Below are positions 1-21,869 of a stretch of DNA of 62,530 nt, piece after piece. The notes beneath the pieces are model-generated. The model saw only the letters and a program-made list of their open reading frames with translations, had not been told where the DNA came from and did not search any database. The position numbers and the translations under genes were made by a program. The first letter of the stretch is position 1, and each line of letters opens with the position of its first letter. This DNA comes from a virus (Duplodnaviria; Caudoviricetes): the IMG/VR virus record IMGVR_UViG_3300045971_000057, positions 1 to 62,530 of that record; one strand, given 5' to 3'.

Positions 1-145
1 GAGTTCGATGTTCCCACGGTGGAGGTTGGCGCGCAGATCCTTGATCGACCCACCCTTCTCAAGATACTTCCCAACCGTCATACCGTTGGTGATCATCGCC
101 CAATTCTCGTGGGCCTTGGTTCCTTCACGGCTGGGGTTGATCTTC
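1..145. repeat. Terminal direct repeat / circular overlap, left copy
   Basis: 1-145 equals 62386-62530 except one base (A127 vs T62512). Confidence 0.95.
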
Positions 146-321
146 ACCAGCTTCGTGATCTTCTGCTCATCAAAGACATATCGTGGCCGTGGGTAGCTGG
201 CTGCGATCTCAGAGGCAACAGTCTTGGCCACTTTGGACTTCGTGACCTTTGCCTTGGTGCTTCCTTTCTTGGAGGAAGTCTTGCTGGTGGATGCCTTGGA
301 GGTTGTTACCTTTGTCGCCAT
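1..321 (-). CDS. Lys/Ser/Thr-rich tailed small basic protein, 108 aa, spanning the junction (ends at TAG 62380-62382); putative DNA-binding
   Basis: Not in ORF track. AAGGAG RBS, ATG at 321, MATKVTTSKASTSKTSSKKGSTKAK...KITKLVKINPSREGTKAHENWAMITNGMTVGKYLEKGGSIKDLRANLHRGNIELK; paralog of 14583-14915. Confidence 0.8.
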   Translation of the reverse strand, partial: MATKVTTSKASTSKTSSKKGSTKAKVTKSKVAKTVASEIAASYPRPRYVFDEQKITKLVKINPSREGTKAHENWAMITNGMTVGKYLEKGGSIKDLRANLHRGNIEL

Positions 322-346
322 TGTCTTGCTCCTTTGTGTAGGCTAT

Positions 347-360
347 ATTGTAGCCTGGTT
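347..360 (-). promoter_or_regulatory. Putative phage promoter motif AACCAGGCTACAAT
   Basis: -10-like TACAAT with conserved CAGGY upstream; recurs at 14978 and 21887. Confidence 0.55.
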
Positions 361-402
361 TGGTTCGTTTGTGGTTGGATGGTTGAGAGGTTGGAGAGTT
401 GG

Positions 403-795
403 TTAGATCATTCCAAGGATCACGAGCCAAGAAGGAACACCATCAGGGCCAACACCGTCAGGCTCGACAGTGTAGCCAGTTGGAGACTTCGCATCCTCAG
501 TTCCCATGATCCATTTCTTCACGCTTGATAAGGAAGGTAGCACTGCGTTAATTTGCCAAGGCTTCAACTGATCCTTGATCTTCTCCGCAGCTAGGATTAT
601 CATCACCGCATAATCCTCTGCGGTTGAATCCTTTGGTCTCTTGATTCGTTTGGTTGCTTCCCAATTGCCTCCAATCTTCATCGTGAGAATATCTCCGGTT
701 GACCTCATACTCGCAAGGCATTGATACTTGCGACTGTAATACCGGAGAACTTCATCACCGTAGTCAGCAGGGTTGACTTTCATCTTCTTGGCCAT
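403..795 (-). CDS. Hypothetical early protein
   Basis: ORF with AAGGAAG RBS-like sequence, in tandem minus-strand array. Confidence 0.7.
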   Translation of the reverse strand: MAKKMKVNPADYGDEVLRYYSRKYQCLASMRSTGDILTMKIGGNWEATKRIKRPKDSTAEDYAVMIILAAEKIKDQLKPWQINAVLPSLSSVKKWIMGTEDAKSPTGYTVEPDGVGPDGVPSWLVILGMI

Positions 796-797
796 TG

Positions 798-1001
798 CTA
801 CTTCCTTCTGAGGTGCCCGAGACAGTTGGCGCTGTACACGTGGCTGGTTGTTTCTTGCTTACACACAGGACACTCAAAGGTCACTATGTCCCTTCCTCTG
901 ATATCCTCTTCAATATTCAGAATTGGAATATTGTCCGATTGCTCAAACCTAATTCGGCAACTGGAGCATACGATGTTGAGTGGTGTCGTTGCCTTGGCCA
1001 T
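798..1001 (-). CDS. Small zinc-ribbon protein
   Basis: CSSC...CPVC. Confidence 0.6.
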   Translation of the reverse strand: MAKATTPLNIVCSSCRIRFEQSDNIPILNIEEDIRGRDIVTFECPVCKQETTSHVYSANCLGHLRRK

Positions 1002-1205
1002 CTACTTCACGCTCACGATGTAGCCATCCTTCATCATCACCTCAGCATACCAGGTGTGAGGCTTTGGGAAGTGTGGGCCTTCCAGAGTCTCACGACCGTT
1101 TGCCTTTGGCGTTCCCATACCAGGGGCAAAGATGCCGATCTTCTGGCCAGCCGCAACGGCAAGCTTGAGTTCTTTCTTGGTCTTGAAGTTGATGTCGCAA
1201 TACAT
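1002..1205 (-). CDS. Hypothetical phage protein (MYCDINFKTKKELK...EGPHFPKPHTWYA)
   Basis: AAGGAG RBS before ATG 1205. Confidence 0.7.
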   Translation of the reverse strand: MYCDINFKTKKELKLAVAAGQKIGIFAPGMGTPKANGRETLEGPHFPKPHTWYAEVMMKDGYIVSVK

Positions 1206-1254
1206 AGTGGTGCTCCTTTGTCGGCTGTTATCGAACAGCCTGGGTTGAAAAAAA

Positions 1255-1506
1255 TTATTCGCCATCATCAGGAAGGTGGTTGAGGCTTGGGGGATTGAAG
1301 CCGCAACCCTCTGCGACCTTGGCCTCTGGGTGTTCTCTCTTGGCCTCTTCCAGCGTGTCATAGGCACCTAGGAATTGTCGAGACTGCTGACCTGCTAGCA
1401 CGGAGTGCCTGGGATAGATCCCATACGAATACACCCCATATACTTCCTCGCAATAGGTTGCCCCACGCGATGGGAATTCAATCGTGACTCGATTCTTGGC
1501 CATCAC
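1255..1506 (-). CDS. Hypothetical early protein
   Basis: ORF coupled to neighbours, GAGGTG RBS. Confidence 0.65.
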   Translation of the reverse strand: MMAKNRVTIEFPSRGATYCEEVYGVYSYGIYPRHSVLAGQQSRQFLGAYDTLEEAKREHPEAKVAEGCGFNPPSLNHLPDDGE

Positions 1507-1751
1507 ACCACCTCACTATATCGTTTGCCCAATTTGAAGCCTCCAGACTCGATGTGGTCTTCAAGTTGCTTCATCAGTTCCTTGTTCTTCCCTTTCCACC
1601 CGAACTGGCTCTTGATGATTGTGGCCATGCTCTTGCCCTTCCGGCCCATGCCGAACATCTCCAACCGGAGGGCACTGCGCATCGACAGAAGCCTGAACAT
1701 TTCGATCTGCTCAGGAGTATCGCAAACAATCAGTTCGTTGCTCATTAGCAC
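1503..1751 (-). CDS. Hypothetical early protein
   Basis: Tandem coupled ORF. Confidence 0.65.
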   Translation of the reverse strand: MLMSNELIVCDTPEQIEMFRLLSMRSALRLEMFGMGRKGKSMATIIKSQFGWKGKNKELMKQLEDHIESGGFKLGKRYSEVV

Positions 1752-1927
1752 ACCACCGTCATCAAAGGCCTGGAGTTTGGATCGGAAGCGATTGCCTTGC
1801 GGAGTTGTTCCTCAGCACGCTTCTTGTCGGGTGAGATGAAGAACACGATGCGCAATCCCTGCCTTCCGTGGAGGCTTGGCTGGAAGCACAACTTGCTTAC
1901 TTTGTATCTGGTCACTTCCTTGGTCAT
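1745..1927 (-). CDS. Hypothetical early protein
   Basis: AAGGAG RBS. Confidence 0.55.
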   Translation of the reverse strand: MTKEVTRYKVSKLCFQPSLHGRQGLRIVFFISPDKKRAEEQLRKAIASDPNSRPLMTVVC

Positions 1928-2072
1928 TTCTTCTCCTTGGAGATAGTGATGCGAATTTTGACGATGTTGCCATCCATCTTGATCTCAACATGATCCTCAA
2001 CAACCTCTGCTTCGAGACACCACAAAGCCTTATTGAGAGTCTTGGCCAACCATTGGAGAGTTCCCATTTTGT

Positions 2073-2378
2073 TCATACACAATACCTACAAGACTCAAAG
2101 GCCAGCGTCGCAATCTTCTTCATCTTTGGGTATCCTTGCGCACGCCATAGTTCGATCTCAGCAAGCAAGTGGGCCTTCTGCTCACCATCATCCGCATAGT
2201 CTCGATTGATCATCTCAACAGGTCTGTCGCAATCCAGAACGATCTCAACCACTGTCGCTCTTGAGATGCTGGTCTTGCCTTCCTCAGCAAAGCACATCAT
2301 CACATCAAATCCAATCTCACTCCAGATCGAGTTGAGGATGTGGATCATTTCTTTGGATGGAACGATCTTCTTGGCCAT
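2073..2378 (-). CDS. Hypothetical early protein
   Basis: GGAGG RBS, tandem ORF. Confidence 0.65.
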   Translation of the reverse strand: MAKKIVPSKEMIHILNSIWSEIGFDVMMCFAEEGKTSISRATVVEIVLDCDRPVEMINRDYADDGEQKAHLLAEIELWRAQGYPKMKKIATLAFESCRYCV

Positions 2379-2380
2379 GG

Positions 2381-2761
2381 TTATTTTCCTCCCAGGATAA
2401 CACGATCACAATAGGTCATCTTCACAACAACTCGGAAGTCTTGCTCAACCTCACGATAGATTCGATGGACATCCTCATTCCACTTGCCATCACCAATCGC
2501 CGCAGAGTTGCGCTCAAACTCTCTCACATATCCATTCCCGATTGGAGCGTCACAGATGAAAGGTTTGATGTCGCCGCAATACCTCGTGTGCCCAATCTCA
2601 CCAGGCATTGGGATCAGTTGGGTAATTCCACGAGCGTGATCGGTGTAGATAATTCCCTTCACATCGCCATTGACGAACTCAGCCCAGGTGATTGGCTGTC
2701 CTTCCGCATTGTAGTGGTTGCCGGTATTGAACTGGTTGGGCTTGCCGAAAGTGGTAGGCAT
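2381..2761 (-). CDS. Hypothetical early protein
   Basis: GAGGAG RBS before ATG 2761 (MPTTFGK). Confidence 0.65.
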   Translation of the reverse strand: MPTTFGKPNQFNTGNHYNAEGQPITWAEFVNGDVKGIIYTDHARGITQLIPMPGEIGHTRYCGDIKPFICDAPIGNGYVREFERNSAAIGDGKWNEDVHRIYREVEQDFRVVVKMTYCDRVILGGK

Positions 2762-2762
2762 T

Positions 2763-3029
2763 TCAGAACTCCTCAAGAGGTTTGAACTCGACATTGTAAA
2801 CTTCCAGACCATTTTGATTCTTGCCCAATGGAACAGAAACAATCTTCCATTTCGATTCGCATGAAGGGCAAATTCTTTTCTCAGCACTCTTCTTCAAAGT
2901 ATCAGTGGGCTTGATGTGGGCCCAACGCTTCACAGCGATGCGTTGGGCACATCTCGGACACCGAGTCAAAAGCAGCGAGGCATCAGGCAAAACCTCTACC
3001 ACCATCGTTACATCTCCACCGATGTCCAT
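2763..3029 (-). CDS. Small zinc-finger protein
   Basis: CPRC...CPSC. Confidence 0.55.
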   Translation of the reverse strand: MDIGGDVTMVVEVLPDASLLLTRCPRCAQRIAVKRWAHIKPTDTLKKSAEKRICPSCESKWKIVSVPLGKNQNGLEVYNVEFKPLEEF

Positions 3030-3292
3030 CGTCCAGTTTTCTCATCACGGTCAAAATAGACCTCATCAGTCAGAAGCAAAAGATCATTCGTGGAGGCATC
3101 TCGGAATATCGTCACCAACTCGATGTGGTCGCAGTTCTGATCGTGCTTGAGAAATGCGATGGACTGGTATGCCTCTTTCTTCCGGTCAAACTTCCGAGTA
3201 TCAAACAGAGCCTTGCTTCCCATCGCAGACAACAACCGGAAGGTCACCTCATACTGTCGCTTTGTCTTGTGTGGAATCCCTCTGGTGTTCAT
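3008..3292 (-). CDS. Hypothetical early protein
   Basis: GAGGA RBS, tandem ORF. Confidence 0.6.
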   Translation of the reverse strand: MNTRGIPHKTKRQYEVTFRLLSAMGSKALFDTRKFDRKKEAYQSIAFLKHDQNCDHIELVTIFRDASTNDLLLLTDEVYFDRDEKTGRWTSVEM

Positions 3293-3802
3293 TTAGTTCC
3301 TCACGATGCGGAAGGTCATGGACTCGATTATGGCCAGGACATCCTCAGCACCCTTGGATGCGGAAGCAACACGCTGGTCTTCAATCAGCAACTGAAGCTC
3401 ATCCATCCTCTTGTTCAGACTTGCCTCGGTGTCGTCATTGTCCACCATGTCCTTGAGTTCCTCTGTGCGCTCACTCAAGTCTTGGATGTTCTGTTCCATT
3501 TCCTTCAGGTCAGGCAGGTCATCAAAGGCCTCATTGACGGCAGTCTCGACAGATCGTTCAATGGTGCGCTCAAAATCAGAACTCTCCATCGCACTCTCAA
3601 CTTCCTTCTCAACCATTTGCTCCAGACCTGCGTTCTCAATCTCACGCTCGATCATTTGCTCAAGGTTGGCACCTTCAATTGCCTTCTCAACTGCCTCTTC
3701 AACTTTGTCGTCCAGAGAGATAGTCTCCATCGCATCCGCCACAAGGGCAGCAACGAGGTCAGAAATGCTAGAAGAGACACGAGCGATCAGTTCAGCGTTC
3801 AT
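3293..3802 (-). CDS. Highly acidic repetitive helical protein
   Basis: Repeats such as VEEAVEKAIE / LEQMIEREIE / LEQMVEKEVE / FERTIERSVE. Confidence 0.75.
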   Translation of the reverse strand: MNAELIARVSSSISDLVAALVADAMETISLDDKVEEAVEKAIEGANLEQMIEREIENAGLEQMVEKEVESAMESSDFERTIERSVETAVNEAFDDLPDLKEMEQNIQDLSERTEELKDMVDNDDTEASLNKRMDELQLLIEDQRVASASKGAEDVLAIIESMTFRIVRN

Positions 3803-3803
3803 T

Positions 3804-4094
3804 TTATTCTCCATCAACAAGGGAAATGATTTGGCGGCAGGTAGCAATCAACTGGTTCTTGGCATACTCTTCATCTTTGGACAGCTTCTCAGAGTTGAGG
3901 TCCTCAAGTAGGCACTCAAGATTTTCAATCTCCAAAAGATCCCCATCCGTCACAGGCTCTTGTTTGAGATCCGCAATTTGGTCTTCCAATTCCCTTCGTT
4001 CTGCTACTCGTTGGGCATTATCCTCCAACCAACCTCGGCAATCATTCAAATCAGAAACAGTATTTTGGAAACGGCAATACGACATGTTAGCCAA
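3804..4094 (-). CDS. Hypothetical phage protein (MANMSYCRFQNT...)
   Basis: GAGGAGG RBS, TTG start. Confidence 0.65.
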   Translation of the reverse strand: MANMSYCRFQNTVSDLNDCRGWLEDNAQRVAERRELEDQIADLKQEPVTDGDLLEIENLECLLEDLNSEKLSKDEEYAKNQLIATCRQIISLVDGE

Positions 4095-4440
4095 TGGACA
4101 CCTCCTCAGCAACATTCTTCTTCTCACGAGCCTTGACGCGATCCAGCATCACAATCGCATCTTCCAGATTGTCGAAGTTGTTGGAGAAGCCATACTCCAA
4201 TTCAATCACCAGCCGGACATCCTTCCAGATGAACACGTGGGCGTGTGATACGAAAAAAGTATCACAAGGATCGCCGCACTCATCCTCACGACTGTTCCCA
4301 ACTACCAGGAACCTTCCATCACCAAGATACTCACTCACCACGATTGGCTCTTGCTGCGATCCTCTGCGGCCAGAGTTTGCTATGTGGTCTAGTTCTTCAG
4401 GTCCCAGACCTTTGAACATTTGCTCTAACATTGCGTTCAT
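4087..4440 (-). CDS. Hypothetical protein, first gene after the ribozyme
   Basis: AGGAGG at 4450-4445, ATG at 4440. Confidence 0.7.
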   Translation of the reverse strand: MNAMLEQMFKGLGPEELDHIANSGRRGSQQEPIVVSEYLGDGRFLVVGNSREDECGDPCDTFFVSHAHVFIWKDVRLVIELEYGFSNNFDNLEDAIVMLDRVKAREKKNVAEEVSIG

Positions 4441-4451
4441 ACAACCTCCTA

Positions 4452-4531
4452 CATTCGCCATGCTCATCAGGTCACCGAGGCGAATGCGAAATGGTGACGA
4501 CTGGGGTGCTTCACAGCAGCCCAGTTTCGCA
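4452..4531 (-). ncRNA. Type II hammerhead ribozyme with pseudoknot
   Basis: UGC-GAAA-CUGGG(C UGCU GUGA AGCA C)CCCAG-UC / GUCACC(loop)GGUGAC-CUGAUGA-GCA; full catalytic core; loop I CAUUCGCC pairs with 3' GGCGAAUG. Confidence 0.9.
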
Positions 4532-5020
4532 GATCATCTTTCCTGTGGTTAAGCCATCAGGCAGTCTCGATCCCATAGGTCTGATTAACATCAGTCCCCC
4601 ATCACTCTTGCTAGGCTCGACACCAGGCCACGCATTCCAGTTGGCGGGTGTCTCTTGCCCATTTAATTTTTTATCATCACCAGAATCCATCGCCACAAGT
4701 TTGGACTCCAAAAGAGATTCCTGGCCACCACCAGTCTCATTCAACTTTTCAAAATCTCATCGTCGCAGAACAACCGAGCATTATCGTGGTCCTCCACCAG
4801 CTCCAGGTCATCGCCAGCTATCCGAAAGAGTCTTGTGGGTTGACCTCGATCTCCCCAACCTTCAACTGCTCCTCTATTATGCGTCAATTCCACAGAAAAA
4901 ATAACATTATTTACCAATCAATGGCAAACGCTGGCTACAACAGAGTCTATGATGCCTTTTGTGGGAATCATTGCCAATACTTATGCGACAAGGATTCCCA
5001 GAAACTGGGTTGAAAAAGAG

Positions 5021-5071
5021 TGCCTGAAAAACATAGATCGAGTGATACCAACGATCTATGTTTTTCAGGCA
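5021..5071. repeat. Perfect 20-bp inverted repeat with 11-nt spacer
   Basis: TGCCTGAAAAACATAGATCG ... CGATCTATGTTTTTCAGGCA. Confidence 0.9.
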
Positions 5072-5153
5072 TTTCTTAGCCTACCTTTTTTGCCTGTTTT
5101 TCCAGGCACATGGAGGCAGAGCAAACATTTGATTTCAAATCACTTACATTGCG

Positions 5154-8009
5154 TTATTTTTCCAATCCCTGGTCCACTGTTTTTTCAGTGCCTTCCAACT
5201 TCCTCCAACGCTCCACATACAGACGCCTGAATCCCTTCTGGACCTTGCCTTTCCACAGGAACCAATCACCCAATTTTCCTTCCTCTACAATGGGCGATCC
5301 AATGCGCAAATATTTGTGTCGATCAATCGTCACTTGAATAGTTCCTGTGTCATCCTCAACAGTCAAATTGAGGAACAAAGTCTGGCCACTCATCTGCCTT
5401 CCGTTGCGCTTCTGAACGAGGATGGTCTCATTGTGGTCACGCAGATTCTTTTCCTTCAATCGACCAAAGATTACAACCTCACCTTCAAACTCAGAATCAA
5501 TCTGCTCGATGTCTGCGATTGGGGTGTTGATCTTGTAGGCTGACGGGTCTGCCCTGATGTGGCCAAACTTGTCGTGGCACTCAAAGATCTGATCGTATGG
5601 AGTGGTCCCATTGGCCAGAAGATTCTTCTGCCTTGCGGTGTAGGGTTGGCCAGAACTTCTCCGGTTGATGATGTCTTCCGCAACCTTCTCACCAACACCC
5701 TTGATGCTCGTCAGACCACCAATCAACTCACCATCTTGGACGCTCCAATTCTTGTCTGACTTGTCTGGATCGAATGACTTGTATTTGAAGCCTTCCTTGT
5801 AGAGTTCACGCAACAACCGGATACACTGGTCGTCATCTCTCGCATTGCGCAGGCAGGCAGCAGCAAACTCCAAAGGGAATTTGGATTTGAGGACCACACA
5901 CCAGTAGGACACCATCGCATAGGCAACAGCATGTGAGCGATTGAAACTCCAAGATCCCATCGTGTTGATGTTCTCCCAGACCATCTTCGCATCCTCAGGC
6001 GACACACCGAGACTGGCCGCACCCTTTTCAAATCGCACCCAATACTGATCAAAGAACTCTTTGCCCAGACTCTTGGACATGGCCTTGCGCAGAGATGAGA
6101 CATCCTCCCAACTCAGCTGGCCAACCTCTCTTGCGATTTGCATCACCTGTTCCTGGTAGATGACGATTCCATAGGTGACTTTGGTCATCGGCTCACAAAG
6201 AGCATGCATGTATGCCGTTGGATGGTCACCGATGCGACGCTTTGTCCACTCAGCAGCACCACCAGAGATCAGTGGTCCTGGGCGAGCAATAGCAGTCAAT
6301 GAGGTGATGTCCTCAAAGTTCTCCACCTTGATCTGTTTGACGATTGACTGGAGTGCGTATCCTTCAAATTGGAAGATGCCGGCGAACTTCTGCTTGTTCA
6401 AAATCTCAAAGGCAGCAGCATCATCTGTTGGATAGGTCACCAACTGCTCACGTGTCCAGCCTACTTGATCGAGAACATCCTGTAGCACCGATAGGGTGCG
6501 CAGCCCCAAAGCATCAACCTTCAGAAGATCCAGAGCCTCAGCATCCTTCTTGTCGATCATTGCCGCGCCAGTGACCTTGTCCACAGAGCAGTAGTTGGCC
6601 AAAGGTTTGCTGGTGATGATGACCCCTGCCGCGTGCTGGCCGCTCTGCCTGGCGTGATTCTCTACATCAGCTGCGATCTTGAGTTGAGGATACTTCTCAA
6701 GCGTCTTGCGACCAACCTCAATCTCGTTGAAGGTGTCCAGGATACAGAAGGATGCGCGAGAGTCACCACCACTGCGCTCAATCATCGCATTTTTCAAGTC
6801 AGCCACTTCCCACGCAGGTATGTTGAGTTCCTTGGCGATGTCTCCGATTGCGCTCTTGGCTTTGTAGCGCATAATGCTGCCGATGCGGGCAACACATTCC
6901 TGGCCATAGGTCTGACGGAGATATTCAAAAACCATCTCACGCCGATCATCCTGGAAATCAATATCAATATCTGGAAGATCCTTCCGGTTGATGTCGATGA
7001 ATCGCTCAAAGAGCAGATCGTATGGAATTGGATCAATGTCGGTGATGCGCAGAAGGTAGCAGACAAGACTACCACAGGAAGATCCACGAGCAGGACCAAC
7101 CAGCATGTGCTGCTTCGCATACTTGATCAGATCCCACACGATGTAGAAGTAATCAGCAAACCCTTTCTCTGCGATCATGTCAATCTCACGGCGCAACCGT
7201 GCGGCATAAACCGGAGTAGCAAGGTCCACGTGACGCTCGATTGCCCCTTCAATACACATCTGCTCCAGAGACTTCTCTGCTTTGAAGTGCGGCAGTTCTG
7301 CGTGGCCAAGTTGAGCATTACACAGGTCAGCAATCGCATAGGTATTTTGGATGGCCCGGGCACGATCTTCTTCAGGCAGGAATGGGAACAGACGGGCCCA
7401 GGAGTAGTCATCGAGAATGTTCATGGGGCTGGTTCGCATGTGTCGATTGCGCCCAGCAACTACCTCATACACCTTCTCATCTTGGCTGCGGGGATAAAAG
7501 TTGTCGCCAGTGGCCACAATGTCAAACCCACGAGCCTGAGCAACATCCCACGATTTTTTCGTCACAGTTGGATTGATCTCAATGATCAGGTTGTCCCTCT
7601 TGGGCAGACTTCCCCACACTGGGCTGCTTCCAGAAAGGATGATGATGTCGTCACTTAGGTCAAACAGCACACCATAGTCAATGCGTGGGTGATAGTAATT
7701 GTGTTCAGTGGCCAGGGTAGTCAGAGCATACAACTCCTGGAGACCTTTGTTGTTCATTGGAAGGAAGTTCATGAAGTTCACACCCTGCTTCTCTCGCAGG
7801 TTCATATCCTCAACCACTGCCAATTCCACACCAAGGATGGGCTTCTTTCCTGCCTTCTTACATGCCTTGCTGAACTCCACGTGCCCCCAAGTTCCGTGGC
7901 GGTCACAGATGCCAATTGCTTCCTCTTTTCCACAAGCAGCAATCACCTTGTCGATTGGGCCATAGACTTCTCTGAAGCTGTATTCTGTCCGGTTGCGGAG
8001 ATTGATCAT
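5154..8009 (-). CDS. dnaE: DNA polymerase III alpha subunit-like (family C)
   Basis: N-terminal PHP-like region, GPARGSSCGSLV, LLFERF, PDIDIDF, HAAGV, KVDALGL, SFNRSHAVAY, HhH (IKGVGEK), C-terminal OB fold. Confidence 0.95.
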   Translation of the reverse strand: MINLRNRTEYSFREVYGPIDKVIAACGKEEAIGICDRHGTWGHVEFSKACKKAGKKPILGVELAVVEDMNLREKQGVNFMNFLPMNNKGLQELYALTTLATEHNYYHPRIDYGVLFDLSDDIIILSGSSPVWGSLPKRDNLIIEINPTVTKKSWDVAQARGFDIVATGDNFYPRSQDEKVYEVVAGRNRHMRTSPMNILDDYSWARLFPFLPEEDRARAIQNTYAIADLCNAQLGHAELPHFKAEKSLEQMCIEGAIERHVDLATPVYAARLRREIDMIAEKGFADYFYIVWDLIKYAKQHMLVGPARGSSCGSLVCYLLRITDIDPIPYDLLFERFIDINRKDLPDIDIDFQDDRREMVFEYLRQTYGQECVARIGSIMRYKAKSAIGDIAKELNIPAWEVADLKNAMIERSGGDSRASFCILDTFNEIEVGRKTLEKYPQLKIAADVENHARQSGQHAAGVIITSKPLANYCSVDKVTGAAMIDKKDAEALDLLKVDALGLRTLSVLQDVLDQVGWTREQLVTYPTDDAAAFEILNKQKFAGIFQFEGYALQSIVKQIKVENFEDITSLTAIARPGPLISGGAAEWTKRRIGDHPTAYMHALCEPMTKVTYGIVIYQEQVMQIAREVGQLSWEDVSSLRKAMSKSLGKEFFDQYWVRFEKGAASLGVSPEDAKMVWENINTMGSWSFNRSHAVAYAMVSYWCVVLKSKFPLEFAAACLRNARDDDQCIRLLRELYKEGFKYKSFDPDKSDKNWSVQDGELIGGLTSIKGVGEKVAEDIINRRSSGQPYTARQKNLLANGTTPYDQIFECHDKFGHIRADPSAYKINTPIADIEQIDSEFEGEVVIFGRLKEKNLRDHNETILVQKRNGRQMSGQTLFLNLTVEDDTGTIQVTIDRHKYLRIGSPIVEEGKLGDWFLWKGKVQKGFRRLYVERWRKLEGTEKTVDQGLEK

Positions 8010-10253: not shown

Positions 10254-11122
10254 TTGTAATCCTTCACAAAGTGGTGGCATTCTGCGACAGACTTCATAGA
10301 CGCACCAAAATGGACTTCAAATTCGGTGTGTAGTTTCACAGGGAACTTTCGACCATCATGAGTCCAAGACCCATCATTCCAGCGAGTGCGAACCCAGTGC
10401 TGAACATTCTCAGCAATCACCTTGCTGTTGTGGATTGAATCTGGAGGTTGATTCTCAGTCAACTTGTGGACATTGCGCAGAAGCGTTGGGTTGAAGAACT
10501 GCTTGGCTGCGTAGTATCCAGAAGCAACGATTGGATATGACGCAGCAGTTTCTTCAAGGCCACCAGAAAGGCCAACAACCTCATTCAAGAACACACCACA
10601 AGTCTCGATTGTGTTGCGAAGGAATAGGCCACGCGATGTAGCAATCAGTCCGATGGTTGTTGGCTTGATCTTGTATTGCTGAGGCATCCCTCCAAGAGCA
10701 CCAACACAGCAGACAACTCCGCACTTCTTGTAGTCATCCATGTAGTCCAGCACCTCATCATATCGCTCACCTGAGGATCTTGGGAATTGCTTGGTGCCTG
10801 GAGAGAACTCCATGTTGTCGTCGCCAAAGCAATAGTAGTCAACACCAGGGAACAGCAAGGCTGCTTCTTGTCGAAGTCTGGTCATGCTTGGAGCAACTTC
10901 TGGATGCCTGATGGAATCCGACATTGCGATGCGGCATTCAAAACCAGCATCTTCAACTTTCTTTTTTGCCTCAATAGCAGAATCGACTGTCCACGGAGAT
11001 TGGCAGCACAACGCAAAAGCTGCTCTGCCTCTGAGGTTGCTGATGTGCTGGAGTGAGCCATAGATGAACTCATCAAACTCATCAGGGTGAATTGATGGGA
11101 TGACGAACGCAAATCTGCTCAT
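10250..11122 (-). CDS. Putative GT-A fold glycosyltransferase
   Basis: N-terminal FVIPS strand, SMTRLRQEA...DYYCFGDDNMEF (DxD-like), later LEET acidic motif. Confidence 0.6.
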   Translation of the reverse strand: MSRFAFVIPSIHPDEFDEFIYGSLQHISNLRGRAAFALCCQSPWTVDSAIEAKKKVEDAGFECRIAMSDSIRHPEVAPSMTRLRQEAALLFPGVDYYCFGDDNMEFSPGTKQFPRSSGERYDEVLDYMDDYKKCGVVCCVGALGGMPQQYKIKPTTIGLIATSRGLFLRNTIETCGVFLNEVVGLSGGLEETAASYPIVASGYYAAKQFFNPTLLRNVHKLTENQPPDSIHNSKVIAENVQHWVRTRWNDGSWTHDGRKFPVKLHTEFEVHFGASMKSVAECHHFVKDYK

Positions 11123-11757
11123 CCAAGATCCTTTCCAAGAGGCACCGCATTGGTTGGCCTGTATGGACGCAAAGCCTGTTCAAAGATTGGGTTAATTGCT
11201 GCGGGGATTTCAGTGGTGGAAGATCCAATGGGAGGTTCCTCAGCATGGCGTGCTTCGGTGTCTTCAAACTCAGCAGCATACTCACGATCAGCACGAGACA
11301 TGACCACATCTCCAGGCAGATGGTGAGTTGAAGAAAGATCAGTCACTGGGATTCTGCAGCACTCAGACAGAGGCTTGACTTCCACCTCAGCAAGCCACTG
11401 ACCTGAATAGTCAGGCTTCACAGTGGTCACCAACTTGACTGGAGGCTCAACATACAAGCCAGCAATCTCAGCATCCAACTCTTCCAGCATCGCAGAATAG
11501 ACGATGTCATCATGGACAGAATCCTGGTGGCCAACTTTTGGATTCGTCACATAGCGGCTGAGTTTGGCAATCTTCATGAAGATGACTCCATAGCGATTGA
11601 AGTCATCAACGCTGGAAAGAGTCAGACCATCAGGGAACAGAGCAACCATCACGTGGCCAAACCTCTTGTAGTTGTTCCCATACTTCTTGTTGCGGTCGAT
11701 GTAGGTCTTGAGTGCTTCCTCAAGGTTGACGATGGCGTGAAAATTTGTCTGATCCAT
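11119..11757 (-). CDS. Alpha-helical nucleotide-modification-associated / pyrophosphatase-like protein
   Basis: DRNKKYG...KIAKLSRY...HQDSVHDDIVYSAML resembles DUF6378/Nmad-type phage domains. Confidence 0.55.
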   Translation of the reverse strand: MDQTNFHAIVNLEEALKTYIDRNKKYGNNYKRFGHVMVALFPDGLTLSSVDDFNRYGVIFMKIAKLSRYVTNPKVGHQDSVHDDIVYSAMLEELDAEIAGLYVEPPVKLVTTVKPDYSGQWLAEVEVKPLSECCRIPVTDLSSTHHLPGDVVMSRADREYAAEFEDTEARHAEEPPIGSSTTEIPAAINPIFEQALRPYRPTNAVPLGKDLG

Positions 11758-12212
11758 CAGTAGTCACCTTTCTGAACTTGGAAGCACTTCAGTCCGTTGC
11801 GGCGCCACATGTCCACAACAGTATCTCGATCATCCAGCACAAACTGAACATCATAGTTGTCCTTGATGATCTTCATCCACTTTTCTTCCTTGACGACATA
11901 GTCACTGCGGTAGTCACCATCCGTGCGCATACAGAGCATGTCCCAACCAACACCATGAGCAGCAAGCCACGCAGTTGTGTAGTGAGAATACTTCTCAAAG
12001 CGTCCAGTGACCAGCAGAATTTTGTAACCTGCCTTCTTGTAGATATTCACCAGATCAATCACGTGGTTGTGCGGCTCATCAAAAGGAATGTCCTCATTGA
12101 AGGCATCCCAGTTCTTTTTCAGGCCAGCAGTTTCGATATGGTGGAGACGCTGCTTGATGTTACAGATCGTTCCATCCAGGTCAACGATGATTGCGAGTTC
12201 CATGTTGCTCAT
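11757..12212 (-). CDS. HAD phosphatase (T4 PNKP phosphatase-domain-like)
   Basis: DLDGT, VTGR, K, LDDR...VVDMWR. Confidence 0.88.
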   Translation of the reverse strand: MSNMELAIIVDLDGTICNIKQRLHHIETAGLKKNWDAFNEDIPFDEPHNHVIDLVNIYKKAGYKILLVTGRFEKYSHYTTAWLAAHGVGWDMLCMRTDGDYRSDYVVKEEKWMKIIKDNYDVQFVLDDRDTVVDMWRRNGLKCFQVQKGDY

Positions 12213-12214
12213 GA

Positions 12215-13054
12215 TCAATCCTTTGGGGCGTGAGGCTGGGCTTCTGCGCGAGTGACTTCCCACAGAGCATGAATTTCATTCTTGGTGAGAGGCTTCTGGT
12301 GGACATCCACAGTGGTCCCATCTTCCTGGTCAAAGAAAGTGTGGACTGCTTCGTCATACCGGAGTCCAGTCTCAGGGTTGAAGATCCCACCCTTGATCGG
12401 GCAATCCATGTATGAAGGGAAACAGCAGGTCCCATTCGACGCACAATGGACTCGCAGCATACGCTCTGTCCACGGATGAACAGCAATCACCTCATCCCTG
12501 ATCTGGCGCATCACATCTTGGAACTCACCCTGGGCCTTCACGCACAGACGCTCACCAGCCATCCCATTCAGGGTGCGGAGGTTTGCCTTGAACACGATCC
12601 CAGTTTGGATGTTGGTTGGAAGGATGCCTCGTGCGTCCTGGGTGCGAGCACCAGCAGCAGCCAGCTTCTTGTAGGTGTCCTTGATCCCATCCATCCCATC
12701 CGCATAGATGATGCTGAGATTTTTGTCCTCCAAGATGCTTCCGGTTTCAACAAACTCAAACTCAGACATGTCCACAACACGCTGTGCCTGCTGCGCAAAG
12801 GAAGTTCCGATGCGGTGACGAACAAGCTGATGAGTGAAGGCACGAGTCACACCTTCGATCAGGAAAACATAATCAGCAAACTCCCAACTGGACTTGATGG
12901 TGTTGAGCATGTATTCCAGCTCAGCCATTTTCTTTTCCTGAGGCCAAGCCTTGATGGTTTCCAGACCAGTAGCACTCATCTTCAATCGAGTGGACTTGGT
13001 GAAGATGAGAGTCTCAAGAGCATCTTGAGTGTAGTTGATGAGTGTGACCTTCAT
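12215..13054 (-). CDS. thyX: Flavin-dependent thymidylate synthase-like protein (variant motif)
   Basis: FLIEGVTRAFTHQLVRHR..SFAQQAQR, DARGILP, NLRTL, RLCVKAQGE. Confidence 0.85.
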   Translation of the reverse strand: MKVTLINYTQDALETLIFTKSTRLKMSATGLETIKAWPQEKKMAELEYMLNTIKSSWEFADYVFLIEGVTRAFTHQLVRHRIGTSFAQQAQRVVDMSEFEFVETGSILEDKNLSIIYADGMDGIKDTYKKLAAAGARTQDARGILPTNIQTGIVFKANLRTLNGMAGERLCVKAQGEFQDVMRQIRDEVIAVHPWTERMLRVHCASNGTCCFPSYMDCPIKGGIFNPETGLRYDEAVHTFFDQEDGTTVDVHQKPLTKNEIHALWEVTRAEAQPHAPKD

Positions 13055-19755: not shown

Positions 19756-20637
19756 TCAGAGGCTGTCGTCATCCGAGGAACCAGCACCAGTGGCGCCAGC
19801 AGGTTCATCCGAGTGAGCAGCAACCTTCACTTCGCCAGCATTGATCATGCTGCGGAATTTGCGAGCAGAAAGGTAGATGGACTCACCGCCAGGAATGGAG
19901 AGAGTCTCCACACTGGGCTTGATGTTCCATCCAAACCAGTTGCCCTGGTCATTGCTCTCAGGGATGGTGTTGAGCTTGTAGCTGCGATAGAACATCGCAG
20001 GGTTGAAGAATCCCTTGCCGTCAGGAGTGGCCACCTGAAGCTGGCTGATCATCGTGTTCCACTTGCGTGCCTTCTTGAGTTGGCTCTTGCTCATGGAGAT
20101 GGCCACCTGCTTGGCGGTGCCCGTAGCAGGATCAACAACCAGGCAGAGGTATTCAGCAGTGGTGACGATCACAGTGCCGCGTGGGGTGATCATCGCACCC
20201 TTGTCATCCTTGGAGCAGTCAGCAAGGCAGGAGTCATCCAGACCGTGGTCAGCAACGAACCCACCGCCATTGGCCCTGGTGTTCCACTCGATGTTGGCAC
20301 GCCGATAGGACACAGGGATGACGGTGATGCCTTCCTCGCCATCATACATCTCAGTGGTGATGTTGTCGAAGATGTGGCCAGCCTCAGCACCCTCAATGTA
20401 GGTGGCCTCACGCTTGGCGCACTGCGGGGAGAGAGACTGGAGGATGGACAGGCGTGGAATTGCGAAGTCTTCACGAGACATCGTCTCCTGGCCAGCACCA
20501 GCATCATCCATCAGATTGATGGAGGTAGTGGCGACACCTGCGGGCTGAGGCGTGGCCAGTTCCTGCTTCACTTCAGCAGGAGGTGCGACTGGAGGAACTG
20601 CGGGCACTTCAACTTTCTTGCGGTCGAGCAAGCCCAT
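19756..20637 (-). CDS. Putative ssDNA-binding/annealing protein
   Basis: FAIPRLSILQSLSPQ, aromatic-rich beta region, acidic C-tail SSDDDSL, replication context; start 20637 with GGAG RBS. Confidence 0.55.
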   Translation of the reverse strand: MGLLDRKKVEVPAVPPVAPPAEVKQELATPQPAGVATTSINLMDDAGAGQETMSREDFAIPRLSILQSLSPQCAKREATYIEGAEAGHIFDNITTEMYDGEEGITVIPVSYRRANIEWNTRANGGGFVADHGLDDSCLADCSKDDKGAMITPRGTVIVTTAEYLCLVVDPATGTAKQVAISMSKSQLKKARKWNTMISQLQVATPDGKGFFNPAMFYRSYKLNTIPESNDQGNWFGWNIKPSVETLSIPGGESIYLSARKFRSMINAGEVKVAAHSDEPAGATGAGSSDDDSL

Positions 20638-20674
20638 GGGAGGCTCCTGTGTAGTTGGGGTTGTGAATTGGCTC

Positions 20675-20887
20675 TCAAGAGCCTGGTTGGACTGAGACTT
20701 GTTTGATGGTCTTGATGTCGTCAACGATGAGGATTGGACTGATGACCTCAATAACTGCTTCCACCAGATCTGTGCCTGCTTCGATATTGATAATGATGCG
20801 CTTGACATTTTTCAACTCCACCTTTGTATCTTTGTCGATCACCTTGGTGCCTCTTGTGGTGCCGTCAGAGATTATGCACAGGACCAT
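20675..20887 (-). CDS. Hypothetical protein
   Basis: Coupled ORF. Confidence 0.55.
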   Translation of the reverse strand: MVLCIISDGTTRGTKVIDKDTKVELKNVKRIIINIEAGTDLVEAVIEVISPILIVDDIKTIKQVSVQPGS

Positions 20888-21492
20888 TACTTGGCCTGCT
20901 TGATCACAGCCTTGTGGCCGCTGAAAATCGCAAAGGTGTCGAAAGGAATATCAATGCCCTTGGTCAAGCACTCTTTGATGTAGGCATTCAGTGTGGACCA
21001 ATGGACAGATTCCTCACACTTGGCCTTCAGCCCAGCAGAGAGAACATCCGCCAGCATCTTCTTGGCCACTTCATTCTGGCCCTTGCCGAACTCAACCGTC
21101 AGCTGGTTCTTGATCAGTGTCCCAGAGTTGTTCGCACGCAGCCAGGCAAACGCAGCCTCACGACGATTGATCATCTCAGACTTGCTTTCCTCATCAGCCT
21201 TCTCAAGCGCACTGATGGAAGGAATGTTGCCTCGGATGTAAGGAGCAGCCTCGATGATCTCGCCACTGGTCAGCGTGAACTTCTTCAGGCCGGCAGCCAT
21301 CATGGCTTCAGGAATTGTGATCAATTCCAGTTCCTCGTGCTCCAGCTTGGCCAGCTGAAGAGCATCTTCCAGCTTCTTGATGTTAGCAGCAGACGCTACC
21401 AACTTCGCAGCCAACTCAGTGATCTGCTTGAGATCACCCACTGGGACGCCAACATCCTCTTGGGGATTGATTGGTGCTGCTTGCTTTGCCAT
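20887..21492 (-). CDS. Replication-module protein (coiled-coil N-terminus)
   Basis: IPEAMMAAGL, AFAWLRAN, VHWSTLNAYIKE; AGGAG RBS. Confidence 0.7.
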   Translation of the reverse strand: MAKQAAPINPQEDVGVPVGDLKQITELAAKLVASAANIKKLEDALQLAKLEHEELELITIPEAMMAAGLKKFTLTSGEIIEAAPYIRGNIPSISALEKADEESKSEMINRREAAFAWLRANNSGTLIKNQLTVEFGKGQNEVAKKMLADVLSAGLKAKCEESVHWSTLNAYIKECLTKGIDIPFDTFAIFSGHKAVIKQAK

Positions 21493-21509
21493 GCGATGAC
21501 TCCTGTGTG

Positions 21510-21869
21510 TTAAAAAAGATTGAAGGTGAGGGGTGTGTAGAATCCCTCAGTGGTGGAACGGATGCCATCCTTAATGCTGCGCTCCCAATAGAGCACACGC
21601 ACTTTGCTAGCAATGCGAGAGATTGCTAGCATCACTGCCCAAGTTGCGGCAGGATCGCCTGCGGATGGCCACAGGAGATAATCTTCATTGGGATCAAAAT
21701 CTTTCAGAGTCTCAGTTGCGTGCTCAAAGGCTCCATCAGGATCGGTGTATGGACGATCACCACCACCAAAGACAAAATGGATTGCGCCATAGCGCAAGGC
21801 TGGCTCAAGGTTTGGTGTCCAGTTGCTCTTGTTAGGTGTTGGCTGCTGAGTAATAAATACACGACCCAT
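21510..21869 (-). CDS. Hypothetical phage protein
   Basis: First gene after promoter motif; DYLLWPSAGDP. Confidence 0.7.
   Translation of the reverse strand: MGRVFITQQPTPNKSNWTPNLEPALRYGAIHFVFGGGDRPYTDPDGAFEHATETLKDFDPNEDYLLWPSAGDPAATWAVMLAISRIASKVRVLYWERSIKDGIRSTTEGFYTPLTFNLF

Follow-up and report, generated by a model that had tools for sequence, protein, structure and literature searches.

A predicted type II hammerhead ribozyme with a long pseudoknot ahead of a small orphan gene in an uncultured pond phage

The minus strand of IMGVR_UViG_3300045971_000057, a linear IMG/VR record of 62,530 bases (the window, here always meant at its full length), probably encodes a genuine type II hammerhead ribozyme at positions 4531-4452, which would cut its transcript between 4499 and 4498. 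The element lies about 620 nucleotides (nt) beyond the stop codon of the DNA polymerase gene, on the coding strand of the replication genes, and a Shine-Dalgarno (SD)-like AGGAGG and the start codon of an open reading frame (ORF) of 117 amino acids (aa) stand directly behind it. Natural type II hammerheads were described by Perreault et al. in 2011 (PMC3088659), so that both the architecture and the phage setting were already known, and the locus is a predicted further example, one more beside the thousands of hammerheads on record. It offers a clean and compact test case: a single ribozyme with an exceptionally strong pseudoknot, 58 nt before a start codon and with a terminator-like hairpin upstream.

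Ribozyme architecture and the odds of chance

Read along the minus strand, the parts follow in the order stem II 5' strand, GAA, stem III hairpin, C17, stem I hairpin, CUGAUGA, and stem II 3' strand. Loops close stems I and III, and stem II is open to the flanking RNA, which is the type II topology. The individual features, all on the minus strand, were as follows.

4452..4531 (4451-4531 counting the G4487-U4451 wobble), minus: whole type II hammerhead including the pseudoknot tail (sequence, Rfam RF02276, pair list)
4529..4531, minus: stem II 5' strand UGC (11.3-11.1), partner of GCA 4463-4461
U4531-A4461, G4530-C4462, C4529-G4463, minus: stem II pairs, 3 base pairs (bp) (computed pair list)
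4526..4528, minus: core G12 A13 A14, aligned to GAA in the Rfam consensus
4500..4525, minus: stem III hairpin, ACUGGG/CCCAGU, a CxC mismatch, UGCU/AGCA, and a GUGA loop (sequence, pair list)
A4525-U4500 (15.1-16.1), C4524-G4501, U4523-A4502, G4522-C4503, G4521-C4504, G4520-C4505, minus: inner 6 bp of stem III (pair list)
C4519xC4506 mismatch, then U4518-A4507, G4517-C4508, C4516-G4509, U4515-A4510 (4 bp) and GUGA loop 4514-4511, minus: outer part of stem III (pair list)
4499, minus: C17 of the GUC triplet, with predicted scission between 4499 and 4498 (from its place in the consensus alignment)
4471..4498, minus: stem I hairpin, GUCACC 4498-4493 / GGUGAC 4476-4471, 6 bp from G4498-C4471 to C4493-G4476
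4492-4477, minus: loop I, 16 nt (sequence)
4464..4470, minus: core C3-A9, aligned to the consensus CUGAUGA
4461..4463, minus: stem II 3' strand GCA (10.1-10.3) (pair list)
4479..4487, minus: pseudoknot arm in loop I, (G)CAUUCGCC, with CAUUCGCC at 4486-4479; duplex estimate -15.0 kcal/mol
4451..4459, minus: pseudoknot arm in the 3' tail, GGCGAAUG(U), with GGCGAAUG at 4459-4452, after one spacer U (4460) behind stem II
4445..4450, minus: SD-like AGGAGG, directly 3' of the pseudoknot
4440-4438, minus: start codon ATG, after AGGAGG and UUGU

The conserved core C3 U4 G5 A6 N7 G8 A9 was complete at 4470-4464, as were G12 A13 A14 (GAA 4528-4526), the A15.1-U16.1 pair (A4525-U4500), and H17, any base other than G, here C4499. 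Pairs adjacent to the core were likewise standard (1.1-2.1 G4498-C4471, 10.1-11.1 G4463-C4529, and 15.1-16.1 A4525-U4500); candidates with mispairs in these places are rejected under the rule in PMC3088659. The pseudoknot between CAUUCGCC and GGCGAAUG comprised eight Watson-Crick pairs plus G4487-U4451 and began one nucleotide past stem II. Re-reading of the sequence and a computed pair list left every minus-strand coordinate of the initial annotation standing, and its identification of a type II hammerhead with a loop I/3'-tail pseudoknot and a predicted cut at 4499/4498 was upheld by sequence, Rfam alignment, and pair list.

An Infernal search with the Rfam hammerhead models, the check put forward in the initial annotation, was favorable in its alignment but not in its score. 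Specifically, RF02276 (Hammerhead_II, clan CL00010) matched 4453-4532 on the minus strand across the full model (positions 1-66 of 66) with 24.4 bits, corresponding to E = 3.4e-4 for the single family over the whole record and E = 0.009 for 401 bases against all families. This is below the gathering score of 37 bits, which is a curated database threshold and not a biological feature; moreover, the Hammerhead_II covariance model leaves the pseudoknot unscored. The locus thus has every structural trait of type II hammerheads and fails the database score.

The covariance model is therefore insufficient for the case when taken alone, and simulation, a scan of related loci, and the probability of the pseudoknot carry it. 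Using our own descriptor (core, three helices, and compact loops), 42 Mb of first-order Markov sequence gave 27 relaxed matches, one with stems of at least 5/2/5, and none at the observed lengths of at least 6/3/6. When the compact descriptor was run on both strands of the window and 163 related loci (1.40 Mb), the site discussed here was the only match. For a 16-nt loop and a 14-nt tail taken at random from the window, the probability of at least eight Watson-Crick pairs was 0.0018. Our own product of the family E-value and this probability, which assumes independence, suggests a joint chance of about 6e-7 per window, a value that stays small even over a few hundred thousand windows.

The same design in other viral contigs

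A generic core pattern was present in at least 120 stretches of viral contigs. Among the matches listed, the common viral form combined 8-9 bp in stem I with 4-6 nt in loop I and a pseudoknot of 4 bp, whereas the window has 6 bp, 16 nt, and 8-9 pairs, respectively. A rarer form was like that of the window, with a stem I of 6 bp, UGC/GCA in stem II (3-4 bp), a loop I of 10-17 nt, and a pseudoknot of 6-9 bp that started 3-7 nt into loop I and 0-1 nt after stem II. Examples with a long pseudoknot came from the contigs L218, L166, L295, L312, L293 (two sites), and L196; the L218 site had nine pseudoknot pairs together with the same U spacer and the same two-base 3' loop spacer as the window. These sites share the window's layout, and in most an SD-like motif and a start codon follow, whereas helix and pseudoknot sequences and flanking genes are unrelated to those of the window. 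Homology to the window's ribozyme is not demonstrable, and they count as analogues that share its design. A MAFFT alignment of ten analogues left their cleavage sites out of register, and the comparison rests on our own descriptor parse.

Among 30 sites with long loops, ten formed a pseudoknot of at least six pairs with their own tail, versus 7.1% when tails were swapped between sites, a control that shows pseudoknots of this kind to be specific. The ten analogue sites also scored poorly with RF02276: two exceeded 37 bits, five lay at 27.7-34.1, and three were unlisted at E <= 10. The Rfam cut-off hence misses much of the long-pseudoknot sub-form, and since the analogues share the low scores, the sub-threshold value in the window would be a trait of that sub-form and not a mark against this copy.

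The position of the window's ribozyme was typical as well. Among the matches listed, 146 of 214 unique viral type II sites, and 94 of 134 when one site per locus was counted, had an SD-like motif no more than 30 nt further on and then, after another 3-11 nt, a start codon, as compared to 8% of control positions. In the same set the distance from cleavage site to start codon had a median of 49.5 nt (range 42-71), and it is 58 nt in the window. The placement of AGGAGG and ATG directly behind the pseudoknot, as initially annotated, was confirmed and accords with this pattern. About 70% of the sampled viral type II hammerheads directly precede an SD motif and a start codon. This supports the view that such ribozymes generally serve to set the 5' ends of mRNAs, and the statistic may be of greater use than the locus by itself.

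Several viral contigs held more than one ribozyme. L207 (IMGVR_UViG_3300017605_000570) had eleven type II hammerheads within about 4 kb (2824-6750); most were followed within a few bases by a GAGGTGA-like SD motif, and nearly every small gene in this block had a ribozyme of its own. L291 (IMGVR_UViG_3300036785_000649) had seven within about 3 kb (114-3180), and a conserved CA-rich spacer (ACTCACACTCA-like) plus AAGGAGTAAC lay between each ribozyme and its start codon, forming a repeated ribozyme-plus-leader module. In L166, the long-pseudoknot site is accompanied, about 350 nt away, by another Hammerhead_II match of 24.7 bits (1014-1081 and 595-663). Such pairs occurred in analogue contigs, unlike the window.

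Counter-evidence and competing explanations

Several results weigh against a functional ribozyme. The main weakness of the case is that neither conservation nor covariation supports this copy, as no homologous copy of the element was found in relatives. Polymerase relatives from viral contigs (80 loci) and metagenomes (80 loci) were at most 64% identical to the window's polymerase. In the parent records of 48 of the 80 viral loci, namely those in which the contig exceeded the fetched locus, no hammerhead scored above 14 bits (best Hammerhead_II match 13.6, versus 24.4 here); the compact descriptor had no match in the 163 related loci, and pattern scans of viral contigs with either stem III or stem I fixed returned 0 matches. 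A second pond sample was identical over the covered pieces, including 4452-4521, and so provided no natural variation. With respect to database support, nothing in the ribozyme region reached the gathering level of 37 bits, and a comparison of the whole window with all 4227 families did not list the 24.4-bit match at E <= 1. Furthermore, altered helix lengths around the pseudoknot can cut activity by orders of magnitude (PMC3088659); given this sensitivity and a 9-bp pseudoknot that is longer than most, activity is not to be assumed from the motif alone. A strong terminator-like hairpin stands upstream, and sigma-70-like sites between polymerase and ribozyme were at chance frequency (3 versus 1.9 +/- 1.2 in shuffles) and are no evidence of a promoter. 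Finally, the nested minimum free energy (MFE) structure from ViennaRNA favors the pseudoknot helix extended into the SD motif over stem I, with a z of only -2.1.

Some candidates from these searches were set aside. Four long-span descriptor matches in polymerase-anchored loci, obtained with wide loop limits, were spurious, and none appeared with compact limits. The whole-window Rfam scan at E <= 1 contained no other ribozyme and a single weak, snoRNA-like chance match.

The site could, then, be a chance look-alike or a decayed relic, hammerhead-like without a useful cleavage rate or role. We consider this unlikely. The score under the gathering cut-off, the E-value above 1 in the all-family scan of the window, and the absence of the motif from all relatives examined would fit such an origin, and matches to core and stem II by pattern do occur by themselves, as eight were present in 596 Gb of genomes (U-spacer pattern) and none of the eight forms hammerhead stems. 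However, nothing about the locus is degenerate: all core bases are present, the three helices are clean, and a pseudoknot of 8 Watson-Crick bp is at its canonical place. The empty 42 Mb simulation at these stem lengths and the pseudoknot probability argue against coincidence; orientation, low-coding setting, and SD adjacency resemble those of real viral examples, and architecturally matching ribozymes elsewhere are also under the cut-off, with only two of ten above 37 bits.

A second explanation accepts the ribozyme and makes it a translation gate coupled to folding, with regulation as its point and not plain processing. Taken together, the nested hammerhead fold (-23.9 kcal/mol) and the pseudoknot duplex (-15.0) are in competition with a best nested alternative of -35.5 kcal/mol, in which ACCAUUU of the stem I 5' strand and loop I (4495-4489) pairs with AGGAGGU of the SD region (4450-4444). 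Forming this alternative would do away with stem I and bury the SD motif. Only the active fold would leave the SD free, the alternative would block both catalysis and ribosome binding, and the equilibrium between the two could be moved by a ribosome, a phage or host factor, or some condition. If so, the downstream orphan genes would have their processing and translation switched together. The nested MFE is exactly this alternative, at an energy near that of the active fold, and the pseudoknot ends at the base preceding the SD motif. Additionally, a 12-nt inverted repeat (11/12) connects 5001-5012 (CAACCCAGUUUC, just past the terminator-like hairpin) with 4517-4528 (GAAACUGGGCUG); the latter comprises the GAA core and the stem III 5' strand, and pairing of 5012-5001 with it is a possible long-range competitor fold. 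This repeat is, however, at about chance level in 1.3 kb (own estimate, ~0.5 expected), the ACCAUUU/AGGAGGU extension is weak (two G-U, two A-U, and two G-C pairs with one bulge), and inspection of L166 and L312, by eye and not computed, revealed no matching complementarity. Both folds could also form after cleavage, so that the cut itself would be no switch. We regard a gate of this kind as decidedly improbable.

There is only a very slight chance that a real ribozyme belongs to a gene cassette that is mobile or exchangeable, with a role tied to that cassette (marking or processing the boundary of newly acquired small genes) and not to the regulatory program of the phage itself: ten small ORFs from 4917 to 403 lack counterparts in the 163 related loci while the polymerase matches 160 of them, the ribozyme is missing from relatives, in prophages, hammerheads stand beside single genes or short gene blocks whose identity varies (PMC3088659), and some viral contigs hold long arrays (e.g., 11 pattern matches in L207), but the record has a single hammerhead with no second one to close a cassette, no recombinase or other mobility gene was seen nearby, and the idea is compatible with mRNA processing and does not exclude it. 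A 13-nt direct repeat (12/13) brackets 5155-4425, with one copy (5143-5155) overlapping the polymerase stop codon and the other (4425-4437) directly after ATG 4440; the copies enclose a 718-bp segment with terminator, leader, and ribozyme. The repeat could mark a module junction, although it is at chance level by estimate.

Predicted transcript processing and genomic setting

For the type II hammerhead favored here, the best-supported function is mRNA processing, through which the downstream orphan genes would acquire a defined, hairpin-capped 5' end without a 5' phosphate. On a minus-strand transcript, stems I and III would fold as hairpins, the 3-bp stem II would close the three-way junction, and loop I and tail would pair in the 8-9 bp pseudoknot, which would hold stems I and II side by side in the active geometry. 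The RNA would then cut itself after C4499, and because only 3 bp of stem II join the halves, these would separate. Of the two products, the upstream one would carry a 2',3'-cyclic phosphate at the end of its terminal stem III hairpin, and the downstream one would have its 5'-OH immediately at the stem I hairpin, followed by AGGAGG, the ATG of the 117-aa ORF 58 nt on, and small orphan genes. The cut would likely uncouple the downstream genes from upstream RNA, be it a leader made from a nearby promoter or polymerase-operon read-through.

In bacteria, 5' hairpins and a missing 5' phosphate slow 5'-end-dependent decay, and engineered ribozyme insulators exploit the same effect. RiboJ, a synthetic insulator from a satellite-RNA hammerhead, is placed before a ribosome-binding site, where it removes the variable leader and leaves a 5' hairpin; it is engineered and provides a functional analogy only. 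Any effect of the predicted cut on stability or translation in the window may be of this type.

A processing function is plausible and consistent with the literature on natural systems. Type II hammerheads are frequent between prophage genes, and it has been proposed that they process long phage transcripts into gene-length mRNAs (PMC3088659). The ribozymes in that report have the same core, open-stem-II topology, pseudoknot partners, and intergenic phage or prophage setting as the window, with at least four pseudoknot pairs in most cases and an importance of the pseudoknot for speed; several flank a gene there, whereas the window has a single copy. The nearest parallel in function is the halovirus 'HHphage', in which a ribozyme heads a polycistronic phage transcript, as we propose for the window, and a mapped transcript 5' end lies no more than 3 nt from the hammerhead site, although this is a core variant from an archaeal virus (PMC3088659). 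In Desulfovibrio vulgaris, cleavage in vivo and in vitro has been shown for three type II hammerheads likewise located beside hypothetical or phage-like genes (PMC8782182). They belong to a bacterial chromosome and were assayed for cleavage, whereas the window's is a prediction from an uncultured phage contig; they are the experimental precedent for expecting such predictions to be active as a rule. A 2019 review described the biological purpose of genomically encoded hammerheads for phage genes as still open (PMC6765202).

The initial annotation had further placed the ribozyme ahead of early genes, for which we found no support: the strand is that of the replication genes, but a terminator-like hairpin stands between, and the genes after the ribozyme are orphans. 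The neighboring features were as follows.

4087..4440, minus: downstream ORF, 117 aa, ATG 4440; orphan with coding-like codon usage (0.31 bits/codon)
4511..4744, minus: upstream ORF, 77 aa, TTG start, with its UGA stop in the GUGA loop of stem III; coding uncertain (0.07 bits/codon)
4741..4917, minus: upstream ORF, 58 aa, TTG start, overlapping the next ORF as TTGA; coding uncertain (0.03 bits/codon)
5012..5071, minus: terminator-like element, perfect 20-bp arms 5071-5052 / 5040-5021, then CUCUUUUUC, a U-rich run after the polymerase gene
5154..8009, minus: DNA polymerase gene (PHROG 405, E 3.4e-244), the nearest upstream gene with known function

For reference, in-frame gene chunks gave 0.43 +/- 0.15 and wrong frames -0.39 +/- 0.31 bits/codon. 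The ribozyme sits in a stretch of low coding potential, the 480 nt after the terminator-like element holding the 58-aa and 77-aa ORFs. The 117-aa ORF had no PHROG or Pfam match, no relatives in viral contigs, and only the window's own entry among 5.8 billion proteins, in which the 77-aa ORF also found no homologue but itself. Small ORFs beyond the 117-aa ORF had no family assignment except for one short PHROG match of unknown function. Those without counterpart in the 163 loci comprised the 58-aa, 77-aa, and 117-aa ORFs, seven further downstream, and two upstream of the polymerase.

Two hairpins were present at 5012-5125 behind the polymerase stop codon, and the region 5125-5000 folded at -55.2 kcal/mol (z -9.65). 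The second of these, with the 20-bp arms, looks like a strong intrinsic terminator. Owing to its 11-nt loop, it escaped the consensus scan.

Two DNA runs from pond metagenomes contained the phage DNA, one of them possibly the source of the record, and no RNA run was listed as containing it. The record is approximately 80% complete according to CheckV. Minus-strand genes span from about 25,400 down to 1 and plus-strand structural genes begin at about 26,000; the minus-strand block includes primase, helicases, thymidylate-synthase-like and PNKP-like proteins, exonuclease, and the DNA polymerase. The closest polymerase among cultured phages was only 41% identical, with no annotated relative usable, and blastn of 3800-5200 against cultured phages gave no match. 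The window contained no tRNA genes.

Finally, we noted two further groups of genes on the minus strand. Two adjoining genes at 11119-12263 had polynucleotide kinase/phosphatase signatures (Pfam HAD_PNKP at 11757-12263, E 1.5e-37; PHROG polynucleotide kinase at 11119-11757, E 5.9e-16). Enzymes of this kind work on 5'-OH and 3'-phosphate ends, the end chemistry left by a hammerhead; an RNA ligase did not turn up in the scanned ORFs of the window. At 19756-21869, three successive proteins matched Pfam families named after the phage Pam3, which we take to be a freshwater cyanophage: gp34-like (E 1.3e-64), gp33-like, and gp32-like.

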